A stretch of DNA of 64,000 bases. Source: Shigella phage Sf20. How positions within the stretch are numbered: position 1 is the first letter of the stretch; each line of letters begins with the position of its first letter. Position numbers and translations under genes: made by a program. The stretch lies in the sequence record MF327006; one strand, written 5' to 3'. The notes under the pieces were generated by a model. The model worked only from the letters and a program-made list of their open reading frames with translations. It did not search any database and was not told where the DNA came from. Positions 1,929 through 54,055 of the stretch are shown in pieces.

Positions 1929-3728
1929 ATGCTAATGTTTAATAACTCCGTTAAATGGTTTACCGGAATTGTAGAAAACCGGGAAGACCCATTAATGCTG
2001 GGGCGTGTTCAGGTTAGGATTCATGGTATACATCCCTCGCTATCCGCACACGGTGACATTCAAGGTCTTCCAACCGAAGATCTATTATGGATTACGCCAG
2101 TACAAGATATTACAAGCGCGGCGATCTCCGGTATAGGTCAAAGCCCTACTGGTATTGTTGAAGGTTCAATGGTATTTGGTTTGGCTTTAGATGAACGTTA
2201 TTTAAACTGCGTTATTCTTGGTACTATTGCCGGACAATATACAGAGAAACCACTCACTACAGAGGGTTTTTGCGACCCTTCTGGTGCATATCCTCGTTAT
2301 ATTGGTAATGATGTTAATATTCTTGCTCGTGGCGGTATTAACCCGGAAACCGGACAAACAACAAAACCTGATAGTGTCTATATTCGAGATGAAAACACTG
2401 GAGTTGCAGTAAATCCAGACGACGAGCCATTAGACCAAATTCCGGTTGATGATAATCCTGATTTTACAATAGAAAAAATGCTGCGGGGCGATGAGGGATA
2501 TCGCGAGAAATGGTATCTTGATTCAGAAGGATATCCGACAATAGGCATCGGGCATTTGATCATTTATAAGAAAACCAGTGATCTTGGTATTATCAATAAT
2601 GAACTTTCTAAGCTGGTAGGGCGTGAAGTTACAAACGGAAGACTTACCGCCGAAGAAGTTAGTAAAGTATTTGCCGACGATATAGAAAAGACTCGTCGTG
2701 ATATGCGCAAACATCCACGAATTGCACCTGTCTATAATAAATGTAATGCCTCTCGTCGTATGGCATTAGAAAATATGGCGTTTCAAATGGGTGTTGGTGG
2801 ATTGGGTAAATTTAAGAATAGTCTTGCTGCGATGTTAGCGGAAGAATGGAAACAAGCCTATGATGGATTACGTCAATCGGTATGGGCTAACCAAACTCCA
2901 GGACGCTCCAGTCGTGTTTCTAAAATTATTTTAACTGGTAACTTAGAATCATATGGCGTAATTGCTCCAAAGAAAGAGGAATCAATTTCTGATGATCCGC
3001 GAGCACGTTTAAGAAATGCCCGTATTGCTGCCTATAAGACGCAGAGAGCAGAAGAAGACCCAGAAGCACCGTTTACCCCACAAGACACACGAATCATGTT
3101 TAAAGAGCCTAAGAGTTCGTATTCTGCGAGGTATCCTTATAACCATGTATACGAGTCAGAGAGCGGTCATATTATCGAGATTGATGATACTCCTTCTCAT
3201 GAGCGATATCATCGTAAACATCCTTCTGGTACATTTGAAGAAACCAGACCGGACGGAACGAGGGTAGAAAAGATTGAAGGCGATGATTATCTGATCGTTA
3301 AACAAGGCCGGAAAGTAAACGTCAAGGGTAATTTGCAAGTTGTTGTTGAAGGTGACGCGCAAGTTTATTATATGGGTAATGTGATGCAAACCGTTGATGG
3401 TAACGTCACTGAATTTATTCGTGGCAATGTTAATCAGACCGTTGAAGGTACTGCTAACATGCATGTTGTAGGTGATGTTACCGCTCAGCTTGACGCTAAT
3501 TTAACGGCTAATGTCAAGGGTAATGCTGAATTAATGATCGAGGGTAACACTACCGAAACAATTAAAGGTAACTATGATTTAACCGTTGAGGGTAATTTTA
3601 ATATGACCGTCAATGGCACTAAATCAGACCAGGTTAATGGTGACTGGTCCCGTAATTGTGGTGCAAGCGTTAAAGATATTGCATCTGGTACAGTTAAAAT
3701 TGATGGTAGCCGTATTGATCTTGGGTGA
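1929..3728 (+). CDS. 5: baseplate central spike / tail lysozyme gp5, 599 aa
   Basis: Lysozyme-like segment YLDSEGYPTIGIGHL and C-terminal VxGxxx beta-helix repeats (GNVNQTVEGTANMHVVGDV...). Confidence 0.9.
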   Translation: MLMFNNSVKWFTGIVENREDPLMLGRVQVRIHGIHPSLSAHGDIQGLPTEDLLWITPVQDITSAAISGIGQSPTGIVEGSMVFGLALDERYLNCVILGTIAGQYTEKPLTTEGFCDPSGAYPRYIGNDVNILARGGINPETGQTTKPDSVYIRDENTGVAVNPDDEPLDQIPVDDNPDFTIEKMLRGDEGYREKWYLDSEGYPTIGIGHLIIYKKTSDLGIINNELSKLVGREVTNGRLTAEEVSKVFADDIEKTRRDMRKHPRIAPVYNKCNASRRMALENMAFQMGVGGLGKFKNSLAAMLAEEWKQAYDGLRQSVWANQTPGRSSRVSKIILTGNLESYGVIAPKKEESISDDPRARLRNARIAAYKTQRAEEDPEAPFTPQDTRIMFKEPKSSYSARYPYNHVYESESGHIIEIDDTPSHERYHRKHPSGTFEETRPDGTRVEKIEGDDYLIVKQGRKVNVKGNLQVVVEGDAQVYYMGNVMQTVDGNVTEFIRGNVNQTVEGTANMHVVGDVTAQLDANLTANVKGNAELMIEGNTTETIKGNYDLTVEGNFNMTVNGTKSDQVNGDWSRNCGASVKDIASGTVKIDGSRIDLG

Positions 3729-4596: not shown

Positions 4597-6497
4597 CAAA
4601 GCAAAAGATTACACAAATTCCTGATATTTTTAATGCTGCTACATTCGATGAAATTAAAAGCGCATTAACAGACTGGATGAGAAACCAGGAAGAATTTAAA
4701 GATTTTGATTTTAATGGTGCTGGTATTAACGTATTGATGGACTTGCTCGCATATAACACTCTGTATATTCAGCAATTCGCTAACTCCGCGCTATATGAAT
4801 CTTTTATCAGAACGGCAATTAAGCGTAGTTCAGTTGTTCAAGCCGCGCAAGATTTAGGATATTTGCCAGCAAGTAAAACTAGTGCATCGACTACAATTAT
4901 GTTGCACGTAACACATCCGCGAAATCCGGCAAGTATTCGAATCCCACGAGGAACTAAATTTATTGCAAGTGTGGATCGCCAGACGTCTTATCCGTTTGTG
5001 ACTACAGAAGACGTTGTGAGCGTTTTAGGTTCAAATGGTTTATATACGCCTATGCTTAAAGTCGCACAAGGTCGTATTGTTCGTACAGAAATGTTATTTG
5101 ATCCGAAGAAACAAATTCTGATCCGCGATCCTGATATTGACCGCGCTCAGGTTAAGTTGTGGGTAGACGGTGCTGAATGGAAAGACTGGACACGAGAAAG
5201 CATTGTTAATGCAACTGGTGCAAGCAATATTTTCTATATGCGTGAAACCGTAGACGGACATACTGAAATTTTCTTTGGTGAGGGTGAATCAACTTTATCT
5301 GCTGCTGGCGGTGCACTGGAAGCAAATTATATCGGTGGACTTAAGCCGTCAACTGGTGCTAATATTGTTATCGAATATATCAGCACTAAGGGCGCGGAAG
5401 CAAACGGTTCAGTTAATTTCACATACGCGGATACCCTTGCATCTATCTCTATTGTTAAAATTATTGAGAATCCGACAAATGATCGTGATTATGTCGGTGC
5501 AGATGGTGGTGGTGATCCTGAATCAATCGAACGTATCCGTGAACTTGCTCCGGTAATGCGTGAATCTCAGCGTCGTTGTGTTACTGCTTCTGACTATGAG
5601 GCTTTTGTGTCTAGCCGTTTTGGTAGTATTGTTCAGGCGGTACAATGTTTCACTGACCGAGAAAAACCGGGTTATGCTTTTGTTGCGGTTAAGCCTAAAT
5701 CTGGCTTGCGCTTGACAACTGTTCAAAAAGAAGATATGCGGGATTATCTGGCAAAATATAATCTTGCCCCTATCACGCCGAGCATCATTGACCCTAACTA
5801 TCTGTATATTAAACAGAATATTAAAGTTTCCTATTCAATCAATGACTTGTCAGAATCAGAGCAGTGGTTGCGCGGTGCGGTTATTGATCAGATTGATGCA
5901 TATTATACCGACGAAGTGGAAATTTTTAACCAGACCTTTAGTAAGTCTAAAATGCTTGCGCGTATTGACAAAGCTGATGTGTCTGTGATAGGTTCTAGTG
6001 CAGAAATCGAGATGGTGCGAGAGATCGACAACTTCTATAAAGCACCGATGGCTGGAATCAAGTTTTTAAACCAGTATAAGAGCGGAATCAAGTCTAGTTC
6101 ATTCAACTTCGAAAAGGACGACAAGCAATATCCAATCCATTATGTAAGTACAGAAATGAACAAAGAATCCGGTTTAGCTAAATTGCTGGTTGGACCTTTC
6201 CCTGTTGATTCTACAATCGCTTTACCGCACTATTCCGGCACTGATTTTGATAAAGAGGTTATCGACGGTGCGGACCTATACTTTGAGGTTGGAGAGGTTC
6301 AGCATTATGACGACCTTATTTCATGGGATCTGGGTAAACTGAATATCAATAGCGATCGCTTTACTGGTTCATATATTGAGTTGACAGCTAAACCGATTGC
6401 TGATAACATCTTTACTAAAGACGGTTCTTTGATCGTGTTTGAAAACGATCTCCGTCCTCAGTACACAACTATTAGTCTGGAGGCAATTGCTCAATGA
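4593..6497 (+). CDS. 6: baseplate wedge subunit gp6, 634 aa
   Basis: Size and synteny; start overlaps upstream stop (ATGA). Confidence 0.85.
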
Positions 6498-9400
6498 TTA
6501 AAGCGCCTAGTGTAACTAGCTTGACAATAGAAAAATTGTCTGCTAATCAGGCGTATATCACATGGGATGACGTAGGCGAAAACTTCTTTTATTTTGTGGA
6601 GTTAGCCGAAACCAGAACACGAGACGGGGAGATCATCCCCGTCGATGAGTTAAGCTGGGTAAACCTGGGATATACTGCCGAACAAAACTGGTTTGAGGAT
6701 AAAAACCTTTTTCCAGAATATTATTACAAGTTTCGTGTAGCAGTAGCCGCAGAAGGATTTGAACAAAGTAAATGGGTTGAGACAGAAGAGTTTCAGACAT
6801 TTAAAACAAACGCATATAATTTTTCTATGATGCGAGAGTTCAACCTTGCAAACGAGTTTATAAAGGAAAAATTTACATACGATAATCGAGAGTATGTCAA
6901 GTTTAATACCGACCTTATTCAAGCATCATTGATGAAGGAAGATTTTGTCTTTAGTCCTGAATATGCAAACATGACAAATATCTCAAACTACATTGTAGTT
7001 GATGAGAACTTTCATGAAATACAGGACCACATAGAAAAAGTTTGTACTGATATAAACCGCACTATGTTAGCGGAAATGAACGGTGTTTTGTACCTTTTCG
7101 AACGGTTCCAGCCGATCGTGAAAGTGTCAAATGATAAAGGTCAATCATGGAAAGCATACAAGGCTTTTAATGATCGTGTAGGCAATCCGGTTTCCCGCAC
7201 ATGCGTTTATCAGTCTAAAACCACTACTTACGTTTTAGGATATGACCGAATCTTTTACGGACGACAAGCTAGCGATACTCGATGGAGCGCGGACGATGTT
7301 CGATTTAGTGATGATACGATCACTTTTGCAAAGGTTGGTGACGAGAACGATTTAGGCTTTGACGTTGAGGTCTTTGGTGTATTTTCCAGATTAACAGGTG
7401 ATACCACAAAATATGCCGAAGCTATGGCGTGCAGTGATGACTATTTGTGGGTTGGTGCTAAAGATGTTATTCGCCGGATTCGTCTTAAGAATACTCCTGT
7501 TGATACCGTACAGGGTTCGCCTACGTTTGGAGAAAAAATATTCGATCCTGATGTTATCCGAGTAACAGGAAATGATAAAGCTGTCATTCAGAAAATGGAT
7601 GTGATCGACGGTAAATTACTTGTATTTGTTACGGGTGAAGTTAAACAGCGTTATCAAGATCCAACTAAACCAGAAAACGTTGTTCCGTCAGATGATGCGG
7701 GTGTATACTTAATAGGGAGTGATGGTCTGTCTTTTCAGAGAGTATTTGGCAACACTCCGCAGGAAAGGGAATATATTCAGCATGGGTTCAGTAATATGTC
7801 AACCAATGGTGATGAGGTGTTCATAAGCCATTATAATCATCACTTCGAAAGCATTTTACCTGATCCAGAAACTGCCGCGAAATATGAATTGGGCGAAGCT
7901 GTAAAATATTCTCAGGAGCCAACTTATCTAACTGATAAGAAAATACATCAAACTACTTTCAGAGCAAGTTATGATGATTTGCGTATTTGGGAGTTAGGAC
8001 CGCAAGCGTATTATAATGAGGCCGATTATACATGGATGCGTCGAAACGGTGTCCGTGTGTGGATCACAAATGATAATCGCCCGTTGGTTGTTTATCCAGA
8101 GGTTATCTATACTCAAGAAGTTGATACATCTGGCATTCTTGACCAAAATAGGATCAACCGAGAAGTTTATGATAAAGGGACCGTGACCTGTTATCTTAAC
8201 AATGTTAAATTTGAAGGATTCAAACAATATGCATCCGGTGTAATGTTCCATAAAAACACAGGAGAGATCATAGGATTCTATCAATTTAATTATCGTGTTC
8301 GTGATCAGGTTGGTGTATATTGGAAACCTACAAATGTAGCATTTGTTGCTGAATTGCAAAATCAGGTTCGAGAGGTTCCCTGGGTTCCGGTTCACTACGA
8401 TCGAGAGCAAGATCCAGATTTGCGGCCTTTACTGAATAAGATGACCCCTGATAGCTTTTTACTTGAGAACGAAAATTTCAGAAAATTCTCTGAATATTAT
8501 CTGCAATTCTTAAGCGATGGTTCAGGAACATATTATAATAAACTAAAAAATCTGATTAAAAACAAATATCCACGCGAGAAAGATGCATATGAGTATCTTT
8601 GGTCAGAGATGAACAAACGAAACATCTATGCAGATAAAAACAAGCGAGATGCGGTAGTAAGATTCTTTGAATCCCGCAAATCAGATTTTTATTCCACTAA
8701 GGGCGTGGAGGCTTCTTATAAGTTCTTGTTTAAGTTACTTTATAATGAAGATGTGGAAATTGAGGTTGAATCACAAGCCGGACTAGAGTATGATATTGTT
8801 GTTAGTTCAACGAACATTGACGAGGATATCGTAGGTCGCACGATTTATACTCCAACCGGACGGGCTAACGTGACGTATCTTGAAAGGGAATATGAAGGTG
8901 GTCGCCTACGCTGGCGAGTAACCATTCATAACCTGATCGGGCGGTTCGAAGAAGGACAAGTGATCAAATCAGAGAAAACAGCGTTTGAAGGGATGATCCT
9001 TGTTGGTGTACGTGGTAAAGAGTTGTTGAGTAGTTCAATCGACTATATCAACCGCTCACGAAGCCAATACACCATGAAGATTAAAAGTGCATTGCCAGTT
9101 TCGCGCTATGCAAATGATGTAATGCGATTCGTTCATCCTGTCGGCTTTGGGTTTATCGGTGTTACCCTGCTTACGATGTTCATTAACAGCGGGTTGAGCA
9201 TGAAGCACACCGAGACGATAATTCAATCTCTGAAAAATTATAAGTTTGACAGCGGATTGCCTAGCGTGTATCCTGATCGGGTGGCAGACCTTGACGTTGA
9301 CGGAAACATTAAGAAAGACCCGCTTACCGGAAAAGCATTATATTTGACTTCACCTTTAATCGGTGATGAATTTCCGGTTCCTCCTGAATATGATCAGGAG

Positions 9401-49207: not shown

Positions 49208-51333
49208 TTACATTTTAAATTTATCTGGCATTGCGTCTACAGATACCAGGTCAGCGATAAGCTGACGTAGAGTTGCCTTATCTGCTTTCTTACGTTCGGT
49301 TTTAGCTTCGCTAATGAAGCTGGAGAAAGACAGGTCAGAAGCAGGTTTAACAACACCTTCACGGATGAATGCATCACCGTCCGCGATCATCTCGCCAGAT
49401 TCTTGTAATGCTGCCAGTTCATTTTTGTTCATAATATGTGCCTCAATGTAATAAGTTTCTTGTGAATCCGTCGATGCCGTAGCACGAGTTACCGTATCAA
49501 AGGATAACACAACACCGCGAGGAAGTAAAATCTCGCATTCTTTGTAAGCAAATGCTTTGTTACCTACTGGCAAGACAGGGATGTTTTCCGCGCCAGCAAT
49601 GGAGAAAGCAACATTAGCGCCACCTTCACCGCGAGAGCCAGCCATAGAATCAACACCAGCAACGGCACTAGCCACGTTTGCATTCCAGCCGCCAAAAATT
49701 CACCGCGAGAGCCAGCCATAGAATCAACACCAGCAACGGCACTAGCCACGTTTGCATTCCAGCCGCCAAAAATGTTAGGTGCAAGGGAAGTGCTCACATA
49801 GTTTTTAAAGTAAAACGCTTTTTGCTTACGTGCAGTTTCCCACATTTGCGACCGGAAGTCCATACCACGATACAGAATAGTACCCGGATCAAGTTTAACA
49901 CCATAGTTAGAGAAGGCATTATCCAGTGCATCGCACATCTTGACCAATTCTTCTGGATCTGCGATTCCCTCAAACTCTTCCAGCTTACGATCAGTTAGGA
50001 AGTTGTTCATATTGATGTATGCTGCATCGGCATATTCGCTCAACACAAAACCTTCCGCGCCTGGCAGATCAAGATCAATATCTGCCATCATTTCACCCAT
50101 GTTGCTAGCAATTGCTTCAAACATACCGGAGGCAACATTACGTAGGGCATCGGTTTTAATCTGGGTGATATGACTACGCAGCATTTCAGCTTTTACATCT
50201 GCTGGCATAGACTGGTCTACTCGATCCATTGCCAAGGCGGTGATCTTGTTTTCGAATACTTCCTCGCTCATGATTTCTTTTAAGCGTTTGACCGAGGCTG
50301 CGATAACTTCCGCAGACAATGGGTCATATTGATCCTGAACTTTTACCAGTTCGCTTACTGCGTATTTTGCATCGGCTTCGCTTTCAAAAATAGTACGCAT
50401 GAAACCATAGCGAGTGATAATATCACTTGTCCAGTCATTCAGAGAACGGGCGGTTGAACGTTCTAAGGCTTGACGGTCAATCAGAGTATTAAACTGTTTC
50501 TTAGGTTCTGCTTCGGTGATATCTTCTTCCGGTTTAAGATTAATTTTTTCTGGATGATTCACATAGTCGCTGTTATAGGTCGCTTGAGTTTTCAGCATTT
50601 CTTCTTTAGTCAAACGAGATTTAGCCGCTACGCGTTGTTCTGCTTCCGCGTTTCGTTCTTCTTCTGACACAAGACTAGCCGCATACGCCTCATCTTTAGT
50701 CAGAGATTCACCAGTAGCCTTAGATACCCAGCGATCACCTAAATCACTTTCTACTTTAGTGAACAAGGATTCATCAAGTTTAATCCCTTTAATCTTATCA
50801 ATCGCCATCCCGCGACGCTTGACAACAACTAAAGCGATCTTTTTGCTGGTCATTACTTCCTGCTGGAATACTTCAAACTTCGGTGTACGACGCACCAAAC
50901 GCTCTATAACGCGCTTAACCAGTTCGGTCTTACCTTTCATGCGGGATACGTTAAAACGGAACATAACAGCGTCTAATTGAGCTTTACGGGCTGTTTCCAT
51001 AACCACATCAAAAGCACTTGCCATAACTGCAATCGGGTTATCGCCTAGACCATTTTTAAGCTGTATAATACGACCGCTTTTGTTCATTTCGCACAGTACA
51101 ACATGTGCGGTCTTGTCACCCATACGAATGATTTTAGGTGTTTTGTTGGTGAAGTTGCAAAGACGGACAATCACATCTTTATCGCGTGTCTGTACTGCAA
51201 AAAGCTGTTTAGGATTCTGCTTAGGCTTTAAGCACTGTACAGGAGCAATACTGCCAAAGTTTTCTTCCTCTTCCGTCAACAGCCATTTCTCGAAAGATTC
51301 AATCATTAGATCGTCGATTTCTAAGTTAAACAT
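49208..51333 (-). pseudogene. alt: alt (ADP-ribosyltransferase) disrupted by 74-bp tandem duplication frameshift
   Basis: 589-aa ORF (49564-51333) carries LYRG and YVSTS; 155-aa ORF (49208-49675) carries the ExE motif KECEIL; both encode ASAVAGVDSMAGSRGE from the duplicated segment; removing one copy gives a single ORF of about 683 aa (T4 Alt is about 682 aa). Confidence 0.75.
49625..49772. repeat. perfect tandem direct duplication, 2 x 74 bp
   Basis: 49625-49698 is identical to 49699-49772 (TTCACCGCGAGAGCCAGCCATAGAATCAACACCAGCAACGGCACTAGCCACGTTTGCATTCCAGCCGCCAAAAA). Confidence 0.9.
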
Positions 51334-51650: not shown

Positions 51651-51679
51651 ATTATAGGGGATCACCGATCCCCTGTCAA
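51651..51679 (-). promoter_or_regulatory. PeSL-like cassette promoter 1: TTGACA - GGGGATCGGTGATCCCC - TATAAT
   Basis: Plus attata 51651-56, 17-nt hairpin spacer, tgtcaa 51674-79. Confidence 0.6.
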
Positions 51680-51686
51680 CAACTTT

Positions 51687-52205
51687 TTAGTTATTTTTTA
51701 ATTGTTCATCTTGCAATAATGCAATCACATGCTGGCGATGTTCTTCCGATTGAGGTACACCGAAAAAGTTTGTTTTGTAGAAATACTCTAATCGGTCTTC
51801 TCGTGTGCTCTCTTCCATCATGATCGCGGGTAGTCCGAGATTTCGGAAACGTCGCTTTTCTGCTGGCGTAAAATCACTGTAATACAACATAGAATCATCA
51901 TTACAAGCAATGCTAAACTCATCCTTCATAAAGGAGAATATTGCGTTTAAACGCTGTTTACCGTCCACGATTTCGATCTCATAGCGAGAGCCATCATCAA
52001 TCTTAGCCATTGCGATAGCACCAACCGGAAAATCATTAATCAGGTTTTCAATAAACATACGTTTGTTTTCGGTGTCCCATACTAAAGGACGCTGATAATC
52101 TGGGTTCATGTTGATATAGCCATCTTCTAACCATGCTTCGTAAACAGAGATAACAAAGTTTTTAGTATTGGTATAGTAGCGGCGTTTAGGCGTTAAACGG
52201 TTCAT
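51687..52205 (-). CDS. DUF262 / ParB-like nuclease-domain protein, 172 aa
   Basis: Motifs DYQRPLVW and DGKQRL; ATG 52205 one nt after upstream stop, RBS AGGAG. Confidence 0.55.
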   Translation of the reverse strand: MNRLTPKRRYYTNTKNFVISVYEAWLEDGYINMNPDYQRPLVWDTENKRMFIENLINDFPVGAIAMAKIDDGSRYEIEIVDGKQRLNAIFSFMKDEFSIACNDDSMLYYSDFTPAEKRRFRNLGLPAIMMEESTREDRLEYFYKTNFFGVPQSEEHRQHVIALLQDEQLKNN

Positions 52206-52206
52206 G

Positions 52207-52536
52207 TTATAGTCTCCTGAATGGGTCATCACGTAAATCAATATCTTTTAAGAACTCATCCCATGAATGGCGGATATTGTTCTTAATTCTCCAGATGAGC
52301 GCAGGGATTGAACGCTCTCCCATCTGGAAGTATGGATCATATGATCCGTATGCCCAATATGCTACTACAATTCCACAATCAGAGCAATAGTATTCTATTT
52401 CACTTGCTGGCGACCAAAGTCCATCAATATGATCGGTGATCTTGCTTTCGATGTTATGGCTATGACAATCAGGGCAACGGATGCAATGACCTTGTTTATC
52501 GTAATTTGACGTTAGCGAATACTTAAACAATCTCAT
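52207..52536 (-). CDS. zinc-ribbon protein, 109 aa
   Basis: Cys clusters CIRCPDC and CSDCG; start overlaps upstream stop (TAATG). Confidence 0.55.
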   Translation of the reverse strand: MRLFKYSLTSNYDKQGHCIRCPDCHSHNIESKITDHIDGLWSPASEIEYYCSDCGIVVAYWAYGSYDPYFQMGERSIPALIWRIKNNIRHSWDEFLKDIDLRDDPFRRL

Positions 52537-53252
52537 TATAGATCCTTATTTGCTTCAAATACTGCCTTTGCGAATCCTCGCGGGGTAAGTGACCTTATAG
52601 TCTTTGTTTTCGTTCCTTTCCCGCCTAGCTTAGAATGCTGTTTACTGTACCCTTTATTAATCTGCAACGGTTTCTTTTCTGGCATTATAAAGCCTTGTCC
52701 GGTCCATAAGCAAGTCTTTTTTGGGTACATATCACGGGCGGCAATATACTCAGGAAACGTAGGATGCTTATCATCTTCCGGCAAATAACCGCCATATTCC
52801 CACGGATGGAACATATAATCAGGCTTACGCCACATGCTAGAGATAACGCTTACAGGATTCTCTATCATGTAGGGAACTCCTAGCCATTCACCCAAATAAG
52901 CGGTTATTTTAGCTGCCCGTACATCATGAACTTGAATCAATGGTCCTTGTTCTCGTTTCTTTCGTTCAAAGTGCGCAGCGCCACTAACAGCTAAATTGGT
53001 GCACGGTGGGAATGCAAAGATAATATCCGGTTTCCCCCATTCAAGGTCCATTGCTCTTTCCAGCCAGTTCAAATCAATCCATGTGTTTACATAGGTAATG
53101 TTTGGATGTTCAAATCTGGTATTATACTTTTTGTATGTGCCGTGGTCGCCATCATCAGCATTAAAGCAGATCACCTTATGACCTGCTTTAGCCCATTCTA
53201 GCCCCATTATCCCCGATCCGTCAAAGTTACAGAATATTAATTTTTGTTTCAT
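52536..53252 (-). CDS. C5-cytosine methyltransferase-like protein lacking a target-recognition domain, 238 aa
   Basis: Motif I FCNFDGSG, FNADD, motif IV FPPCTNLAVSGA (PC), motif VI MIENPV; RBS AAAGGGG. Confidence 0.5.
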   Translation of the reverse strand: MKQKLIFCNFDGSGIMGLEWAKAGHKVICFNADDGDHGTYKKYNTRFEHPNITYVNTWIDLNWLERAMDLEWGKPDIIFAFPPCTNLAVSGAAHFERKKREQGPLIQVHDVRAAKITAYLGEWLGVPYMIENPVSVISSMWRKPDYMFHPWEYGGYLPEDDKHPTFPEYIAARDMYPKKTCLWTGQGFIMPEKKPLQINKGYSKQHSKLGGKGTKTKTIRSLTPRGFAKAVFEANKDL

Positions 53253-53494
53253 ATACGCCCCTTTAATCCAACACAGATTTTAGAAGGTTCTTTGCCGTGC
53301 CACATTAAGTAAAGTCCGTTAATGCGGCCTTGTTTTGTATATGATTCTTTTCTGATCTTCTTATAGTGTCGTGTTTCCTCAGCCGATTGTTTAGAATACC
53401 AATCATAAAGGAAGATGAACAAAGGCCACCCATTAGCGGCCTTAATGCAGTTATTCAAAAATTCCTTATTGCGTTTAATTAATTTTCTTTTCAC
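53249..53494 (-). CDS. hypothetical protein, 81 aa (GTG start)
   Basis: GTG start overlaps upstream stop (GTGA); no internal ATG near the start. Confidence 0.4.
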   Translation of the reverse strand: MKRKLIKRNKEFLNNCIKAANGWPLFIFLYDWYSKQSAEETRHYKKIRKESYTKQGRINGLYLMWHGKEPSKICVGLKGRI

Positions 53495-53742
53495 GCTGCC
53501 CCCATTGGTTTGATAGTAACAGAATCTAAAAGACCTTTGTTAGCCAGTTCGCGGCAAGTTTTCAGATCCGCAACTTCCCAACCAGCCGCAATCAGGTTAT
53601 CAATCAGGCTGTTAGCAACTTCTTCGCTCATGAAAGAGCACTGTTTGCCGATGGTGTAGCGTACACGCTGTAATTTCAGTTTACGGAAGCCTTTAACGTT
53701 CAGGTCTTTAGCGATTTTCTTTGCGGTTTCGATGTTAGCCAT
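53491..53742 (-). CDS. hypothetical protein, 83 aa (starts MANIE)
   Basis: First gene after cassette promoter 2; RBS AGGAGA; first 16 nt of CDS identical to the 70-aa gene at 51614. Confidence 0.5.
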   Translation of the reverse strand: MANIETAKKIAKDLNVKGFRKLKLQRVRYTIGKQCSFMSEEVANSLIDNLIAAGWEVADLKTCRELANKGLLDSVTIKPMGAA

Positions 53743-53782
53743 TGTTTGATTCTCCTAAGTGGTATCTCGTCTTGATGGTTGT

Positions 53783-53811
53783 ATTGTAGGGGAGTTATCC
53801 TCCCCTGTCAA
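53783..53811 (-). promoter_or_regulatory. PeSL-like cassette promoter 2: TTGACA - GGGGAGGATAACTCCCC - TACAAT
   Basis: Plus attgta 53783-88, 17-nt hairpin spacer, tgtcaa 53806-11. Confidence 0.55.
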
Positions 53812-54026: not shown

Positions 54027-54055
54027 ATTATAGGGGATCTCCCGATCCCCGTCAA
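54027..54055 (-). promoter_or_regulatory. PeSL-like cassette promoter 3: TTGACG - hairpin GGGATCGGGAGATCCCC - TATAAT
   Basis: Plus attata 54027-32, 17-nt hairpin spacer, cgtcaa 54050-55. Confidence 0.55.

Follow-up and report, generated by a model that had tools for sequence, protein, structure and literature searches.

Positions 51687–53811 of the 64,000-nt stretch of Shigella phage Sf20 analysed here (sequence record MF327006; hereafter the window) hold a block of five closely packed genes on the minus strand, g1–g5, which is probably an early accessory cassette of independent genes bounded by promoter-early stem-loops (PeSLs), with g3 encoding an orphan, Dcm-like DNA cytosine-C5 methyltransferase of minimal size (mini-Dcm) and with g4 and g5 serving separate functions. 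This part of the window is 99.7% identical to the genome of Krischvirus RB49 (OZ035808.1) and 97–99% identical to those of approximately 56 other krischviruses, and each of the five open reading frames (ORFs) has its counterpart in RB49 (Table 1). The locus is an ordinary one, combining a known methyltransferase family and a known kind of mosaic cassette with a bare DUF262 protein, g5, which is its only truly uncharacterized element.

The five genes differ widely in their distribution. Homologues of g3 were found by tblastn in 1,581 phage records, 1,458 of them covering at least 80% of the query, and their carriers include Drexlerviridae, Dhillonvirus, Vequintavirinae, Klebsiella Webervirus, 9NA and jumbo phages. 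Those of g4 (phrog_2993, E = 7e-34) occur in 285 phage records, mostly of Felixounavirus and Nonagvirus, and those of g5 in 326 records, mainly of Slopekvirus, Pseudotevenvirus and temperate phages such as ST64B. The g2 family (phrog_7065) is present in 172 phage records, other T4-like and T5-like phages among them, and g1 (phrog_14908, E = 5e-59) yielded 56 tblastn records, exclusively from Krischvirus. Around the g3, g4 and g5 homologues of eight unrelated phages, the annotated genes include no other member of the block. Co-occurrence was further assessed in IMG/VR, from 80 loci carrying a g3 homologue and 47 carrying a g5 homologue, taken together with their flanking sequence; outside Krischvirus, tblastn and profile hidden Markov models (HMMs) located a partner gene at none of 79 methyltransferase loci and none of 45 DUF262 loci, within a sample limited to g3 homologues at least approximately 51% identical and to a flank of 5 kb, and multi-gene loci were confined to Krischvirus contigs. 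Two candidate partners were rejected: the small (70-residue) gene overlapping the start of the g3 homologue in the T1-like JMPW1 and in 9NA is not homologous to g2, and the gene of approximately 108 residues that precedes the g5 homologues of Slopekvirus and Pseudotevenvirus is not homologous to g4, with which only the Nonagvirus JenP1 protein aligns.

The block can also lose parts. In a 150-kb Krischvirus-like metagenomic contig (L012, positions 4774–5717), g2 is precisely missing and g1 is joined directly to g3, the GTGA at the g1 stop codon supplying a GTG start to the methyltransferase; g1 has also had its 5′ third replaced. The loss of g2 probably occurred by recombination at the similar 5′ ends of g2 and g3, as the encoded MKRKLI and MKQKLI would suggest. 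The window itself is without two single-gene PeSL cassettes of the RB49 reference, RB49p186 and ORFan192 (window positions ~51655 and ~54070; positions 3355–3577 and 6020–6556 of the reference, L001), and both deletions end exactly at the PeSLs that flank the five-gene block. ORFan192 is known to form PeSL mini-circles (Arbiol et al., PMC2839356).

A homologue of g3 has been studied outside of any such block. Escapers of retron Ec86 obtained from phage K42 (KarlJaspers-like, Drexlerviridae) were all mutated in a 711-bp `dcm' gene, the product of which, when expressed alone, was toxic only with Ec86 present and raised the 5-methylcytosine (5mC) content of the multicopy single-stranded DNA (msDNA), as determined by liquid chromatography–mass spectrometry, which a C82A/E128A/K175A/K176A mutant did not (bioRxiv 10.1101/2023.08.16.553469). 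KarlJaspers (MZ501090) encodes a `Dcm-like C5 cytosine methyltransferase' with the K42 residue numbering, and the K175/K176 numbering is reproduced in members of the Drexlerviridae. A PLoS Biol retron paper was set aside as a source on the mini-Dcm family, as it concerned an adenine methyltransferase of another family. Taken together, the differing distributions, the lack of co-occurrence, the metagenomic contig and the activity of K42 Dcm on its own argue for a genus-specific mosaic of independent accessory genes.

The assignment of g3 is founded on its family, motifs and fold. The protein belongs to phrog_757, `DNA methyltransferase' (E = 2.1e-90, residues 1–237), and its predicted structure agrees with solved C5-methyltransferases in the fold of the catalytic domain; sequence searches of the PDB, with g3 as a single sequence or with a 68-sequence profile, returned nothing relevant. 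In an alignment of 68 homologues the invariant residues comprise F10, G12, S13 and G14 of motif I (FDGSG, residues 10–14), P82-P83-C84-T85 and the SG at 90–91 of motif IV, E131-N132-P133 of motif VI, the LGG at 209–211 and R220, S221 and R225 of a motif IX-like RSLTPRGFA; of the lysine pair in YPKKT, K178 is invariant and K177 is mostly kept, being L, I or R in some homologues. A first-pass annotation of the window, made by a model from the letters and their ORFs, had described this protein as C5-methyltransferase-like and too short to contain a target-recognition domain (TRD), and both statements hold. Only ~85 residues, conserved and modelled mostly as ordered non-regular coil, separate ENP from RSLTPRG, and no separate variable TRD lies between motifs VIII and IX. 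Essentially, g3 is a catalytic domain with a conserved stretch (residues ~141–215) in place of the variable TRD; family-wide, the mean column identity is 0.74 in this TRD-equivalent stretch, compared with 0.54–0.57 in the linkers of the N-terminal half. Conservation of the stretch that replaces the TRD suggests that the mini-Dcm family shares one DNA target. The short length is the family norm, nearly all homologues being full length at ~225–250 residues (219–259 overall), and a large protein database has 7,310 relatives; a few homologues do have a precomputed PF00145 match. It is on this basis that g3 may be regarded as a new member of the known mini-Dcm family, its activity being predicted from a homologue ~55% identical.

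Under the favoured account, g3 is the only enzyme of the block with a predictable activity, and would use S-adenosylmethionine as methyl donor, Cys84 of the PPC motif as nucleophile and Glu131 of ENP as proton donor. Early in infection it would most likely methylate a fixed DNA target common to the family, and its role is likely to be protection from, or interference with, host nucleases rather than bulk modification of virion DNA. The block, which sits in a hyperplastic region of Krischvirus RB49, would have brought together five genes of separate evolutionary origin, packed stop to start as is usual in T4-type early regions, and g4 and g5 would be under selection for functions of their own that do not need g3.

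Several observations, in addition to the limits of the co-occurrence sample given above, weigh against this account. Genes g3–g5 are kept together in all ~56 Krischvirus records, a retention that independent functions do not need. The first-pass annotation had named two Pfam models as checks and, while that for DUF262 is supported, the C5-methyltransferase model PF00145 matches g3 weakly and below threshold (E = 0.027, 14.4 bits compared with a cut-off of 22, residues 10–100); NCBIfam profiles gave zero matches to g3, and Foldseek against the PDB retrieved generic Rossmann methyltransferases only. HpaII and NheI both cleave RB49 DNA (PMC4041780), modified nucleosides were undetected by high-performance liquid chromatography (HPLC) and mass spectrometry (MS) in Krischvirus TB34, and TB34 is immune to BrxU, which cuts 5mC-containing DNA (PMC13390438). 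RB49 is routinely propagated on E. coli B (PMC4041780), a lineage that carries the Dcm-triggered retron Ec86 (bioRxiv 10.1101/2023.08.16.553469), so that the RB49 enzyme may differ in target from that of K42 or may be counteracted. Finally, the Dcm/EcoRII site CCWGG is approximately twofold rarer than expected in the whole window (26 sites observed, 53.8 ± 8.2 expected from dinucleotide-preserving shuffles, 100 of 100 of which had at least 26), a depletion that does not fit full CCWGG protection. A CCWGG-like target is in any case a lead only, suggested by the K42 work alone, in which the proposal was drawn from one mutated msDNA site; caution is advisable because of that single site and because, in dcm+ MG1655, the msDNA was poorly methylated by the host Dcm, its 5mC being raised there by the K42 enzyme (bioRxiv 10.1101/2023.08.16.553469).

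TB34 carries an intact g3, which differs from that of RB49 at three non-invariant positions, and it is excluded that g3 methylates the packaged genome in bulk or with relaxed specificity. The TB34 nucleosides, its immunity to BrxU and the cutting of RB49 DNA by HpaII and NheI imply that protection of virion DNA, if any, is confined to rare sites; any methylation by g3 would be either site-specific at a rare motif or directed away from the virion, to host DNA or to hairpin or single-stranded DNA. The latter option amounts to a variant of the favoured account, in which g3 acts on host DNA, on single-stranded or hairpin DNA or on another nucleic acid and serves, during takeover, as a host-manipulation or counter-defence enzyme instead of a self-protecting methylase. 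Such a role is possible, although on balance rather doubtful. The unmodified virion DNA of TB34 and the restriction of RB49 DNA speak for it, as do the rise in 5mC on hairpin msDNA brought about by the K42 enzyme in the dcm+ host, the early expression of g3 predicted from its sigma-70 promoter and the finding in the BASEL study of no link between such methyltransferase genes and resistance to restriction (PMC8594841). On the other hand, HPLC coupled to ultraviolet detection and MS would probably miss methylation at a few hundred sites per genome, and the restriction data cover two sites only.

The organization of the block is that of a single early transcription unit (Table 1). The chain of overlapping stop and start codons reported in the first-pass annotation was borne out at every junction on reading the sequence: GTGA for g1/g2 (−4), ATGA for g2/g3 (−4), TAATG for g3/g4 (−1) and TAAcATG for g4/g5 (+1), with a Shine–Dalgarno sequence (GGAG/GGGG/AGGA) before every start codon. 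The start of g5 is the annotated ATG at 52205, following TAAc; the mechanical ORF from an upstream TTG would give 184 residues. The promoter that had been placed upstream of the block is likewise there, as a near-consensus sigma-70 PeSL in which the 17-nt spacer between TTGACA and TACAAT is a GGGGAG/CTCCCC stem-loop. A second PeSL, just past g5, marks both the end of the unit and the promoter of the next cassette, and a further promoter of PeSL architecture lies at 54055..54027. The block is thereby flanked on both sides by sigma-70 −35 and −10 hexamers around a GC stem-loop, the architecture of the PeSL cassettes of RB49 and phi1 (Arbiol et al., 2010, PMC2839356). Its GC content shows no difference from that of the window.

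Table 1. Genes and flanking promoters of the five-gene block (window coordinates).
Feature	Position	Strand	RB49 counterpart	Description
g1	53491..53742	−	RB49p190	83 aa, ATG start; function unknown
g2	53249..53494	−	RB49p189.1	81 aa, GTG start; function unknown
g3	52536..53252	−	RB49p189	238 aa; predicted mini Dcm-like SAM-dependent (S-adenosylmethionine-dependent) DNA cytosine-C5 methyltransferase, catalytic core only
g4	52207..52536	−	RB49p188	109 aa; small zinc-ribbon-like protein (CxxCxxC...CxxC)
g5	51687..52205	−	RB49p187	172 aa; stand-alone ParB/DUF262 NTP-binding-type domain (YQR..VW, DGKQRL, NFxGVPQSEEH)
Upstream PeSL-type early promoter of block	53783..53811	−		TTGACA-GGGGAGGATAACTCCCC-TACAAT; promoter scan 11/12
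Downstream PeSL	51651..51679	−		TTGACA, GGGGATC/GATCCCC stem-loop, TATAAT; promoter scan 12/12

Ratios of nonsynonymous to synonymous substitution rates (dN/dS) among krischviruses are 0.03–0.05 for g3, 0.015–0.06 for g5, 0.05–0.14 for g4, ~0–0.07 for g1 and 0.18–0.37 for g2, from which all five are genuine genes under purifying selection; g2 is the least constrained and, being missing from the metagenomic contig, a dispensable member of the block. Two further features were noted inside the block: a 9-bp hairpin, rich in GC and accompanied by a weak T tract, within g2 (53422–53443, minus strand) and a 10/12 sigma-70-like promoter, TTGACG-18-TAGAAT, just within the 5′ end of g3 (53195–53224). 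Either could uncouple expression of g3–g5 from that of g1–g2, or both could be chance matches.

The first-pass annotation had read the coupled junctions as a sign of co-translation and probably of a complex, and had proposed a DNA- or nucleotide-modification or anti-restriction module. In its explicit form this would be a machine made of g3, g4 and g5, possibly joined by g1 and g2, in which a methyltransferase devoid of a TRD obtains target recognition or regulation from its zinc-ribbon and ParB/DUF262 partners. The stop/start-coupled junctions, the single promoter, the lack of a separate TRD in g3 and the joint presence and purifying selection of g3, g4 and g5 in all Krischvirus records examined can be read in favour of such a machine, as can the occurrence of ParB-like domains near methyltransferases elsewhere. 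In 9NA (L007, 3498–5323), for instance, a 254-residue `ParB-like partition protein' (gp81) is encoded ~400 bp downstream of the mini-Dcm homologue; this neighbour of a mini-Dcm gene, a ParB-family protein distinct from g5, is missed by the DUF262 profile. These points are outweighed by others: more than 1,500 phages have a g3 homologue but neither g4 nor g5, the g5 homologues of Slopekvirus, Pseudotevenvirus and ST64B and the g4 homologues of Nonagvirus and Felixounavirus stand beside unrelated genes, the K42 homologue, expressed on its own, is active in E. coli, and the high conservation of the part of g3 that corresponds to a TRD means that an external specificity subunit is not implied. Close packing is, moreover, generic in RB49: in an annotated 9.7-kb stretch, seven of the 19 junctions outside the block are overlapping or at most 4 nt apart, and p199–p203 form a second five-gene chain. 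With no partner at any of the sampled loci outside Krischvirus and with g2 deleted from one contig, the proposed complex does not stand up well and is judged improbable; the analysis argues that translational coupling here reflects genome compaction and not stoichiometric assembly.

The sequence motifs on which the module had been built, namely FDGSG, FPPC...SGA and ENP in g3, CxxC...CxxC in g4 and YQR..VW and DGKQR in g5, are all present. For g4, the two cysteine knuckles (CIRCPDC and CSDC) are also kept in the homologue from Nonagvirus JenP1, whereas the best Pfam match, to Zn_Ribbon_TF (E = 4.7e-4), scores 20.1 bits and remains under the cut-off of 29; the zinc ribbon is a putative one. The DUF262/ParB call on g5, by contrast, is above the Pfam threshold (N-terminal DUF262 domain, PF03235), with the YQR and DGKQR motifs retained. 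The protein closes with a family-specific C-terminal motif, NFxGVPQSEEH, and ends at residue 172, directly after the DUF262 domain. It therefore lacks both the ParBDB domain, a DNA-binding helical domain that follows DUF262 (defined in PMC12065111) and that is present in the Menshen NsnA, DndB and SspE sensors, and any nuclease effector of the characterized DUF262 proteins; a Pfam scan found no second domain in g5, such as the DUF1524/HNH nuclease of the GmrD part, and the PADLOC match to NsnA spans only profile positions 47–187 of 385. Judged from its sequence, g5 is a true DUF262 protein, yet no GmrSD enzyme. A word-indexed protein search with g5 gave seven matches only, and its relatives were collected by an exhaustive HMM search; the close ones are either stand-alone proteins of ~160–190 residues or proteins of ~280 residues with an N-terminal extension of ~110–140 residues, in which no Pfam domain was found.

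The bare domain brings to mind another possibility, in which g5, perhaps with g4, is a decoy against the DUF262 sensors of the host (GmrSD/BrxU, SspE, Menshen NsnA and PD-T4-2), poisoning them through mixed oligomers or competing for their nucleotide or DNA ligand. It would in this way offset the liabilities of a Dcm enzyme, 5mC attracting type IV enzymes of the GmrSD/BrxU type and msDNA methylation firing Ec86, and the juxtaposition of the genes would be functional inside Krischvirus though not ancient. If true, it would explain the growth of RB49 on Ec86-bearing E. coli B and the escape of TB34 from BrxU, and the stand-alone DUF262 proteins of Slopekvirus, Pseudotevenvirus and prophage ST64B would constitute a new class of anti-defence proteins. 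The chances of this being so are considered slim.

The block has also to be viewed against Krischvirus SAP, in which 5-hydroxymethyldeoxycytidine (5-hmdC) and glucosylated 5-hmdC have been reported although no known synthase or glucosyltransferase is encoded (PMC13390438). SAP and TB34 have five identical genes in the block, with the same three g3 substitutions, and the sole difference between them in the 6-kb region other than four or five single-base indels is an extra, non-identical 79-bp PeSL directly 3′ of g5 in SAP (L003, 2069–2147; TB34, L002, 2068). The extra PeSL generates a 117-nt ORF, and the published analysis of single-nucleotide polymorphisms gave no leads. That the block is the missing pathway, with the C5-methyltransferase-like enzyme installing the hydroxymethyl group of glucosyl-5-hydroxymethylcytosine, is highly improbable and was rejected as the cause of the SAP modification, because the same five genes are found in modified SAP and unmodified TB34, no glycosyltransferase lies within the block, replacement of every cytosine would be unlikely for a post-replicative enzyme whose mini-TRD is fixed, and the SAP results would be accounted for by a mixture of phages in the stock.

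Two observations concern g1 and a neighbouring gene. Residues 12–75 of g1 weakly match positions 722–785 of the 938 of RT_UG35 (DRT; PADLOC, E = 2.6e-5). In the gene for an Alt-like ADP-ribosyltransferase (minus strand; ORF 49564..51333), the window has a 74-nt tandem duplication at 49625–49698 relative to RB49 (NC_005066), reference positions 1400–1474 (L001) being matched twice by BLAST; the duplication shifts the frame and results in a 589-residue ORF with an aberrant hydrophobic tail, compared with the 683-residue Alt.

Among coliphages and Klebsiella phages, the mini-Dcm family is one of the most frequent sources of a `DNA methyltransferase' annotation, and it is a known trigger of retron defence. 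RB49, which is T4-like and genetically tractable, would be a convenient phage in which to define the target of the family and its benefit to the phage. Should g5 antagonize DUF262-based defences, a new anti-defence principle would emerge; otherwise, the locus is a textbook case of PeSL-mediated mosaicism, without evidence for a new modification pathway.

Compared with the classical C5-methyltransferases of PF00145 (M.HhaI, M.HaeIII, E. coli Dcm and DNMT3A/B), g3 is ~90–250 residues shorter and falls under the Pfam gathering threshold. Between motifs VI and IX it has a short, conserved stretch where they have a variable TRD, and it is an orphan, with no cognate restriction enzyme. Its nearest characterized relative is the Dcm of KarlJaspers (Bas06) and K42, the trigger of retron Ec86/Eco1, a member of the same family (phrog_757) with 55–56% full-length identity and 236 residues instead of 238. 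Residues C82, E128, K175 and K176 of the K42 enzyme correspond to C84, E131, K177 and K178 of g3, and neither protein has a separate TRD. Their contexts are nonetheless distinct, the K42-type gene lying beside replication genes or the genome end in siphoviruses and g3 in a PeSL early cassette of a T4-like myovirus.

Like GmrSD/BrxU, SspE, DndB, Menshen NsnA and PD-T4-2 A, g5 has the ParB/Srx fold and carries the YQR and DG(Q/K)QR motifs, with profile matches that are significant. It differs from them in consisting of the ~170-residue domain only, without ParBDB or a DUF1524/HNH or other effector, in coming from a lytic phage and not from a host defence island, and in having its own NFxGVPQSEEH motif.

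As a unit, the block resembles the PeSL mobile cassettes described in RB49 and phi1 (Arbiol et al., 2010; Comeau et al., 2014) in being bounded by canonical PeSLs. The neighbouring cassettes of RB49p186 and ORFan192 are variable between RB49 isolates, exactly at the PeSLs. Most PeSL cassettes in this region carry one ORFan, compared with the five genes of this block, and the block is fixed in the genus, the metagenomic contig being the exception in its g2 and in the 5′ portion of its g1.

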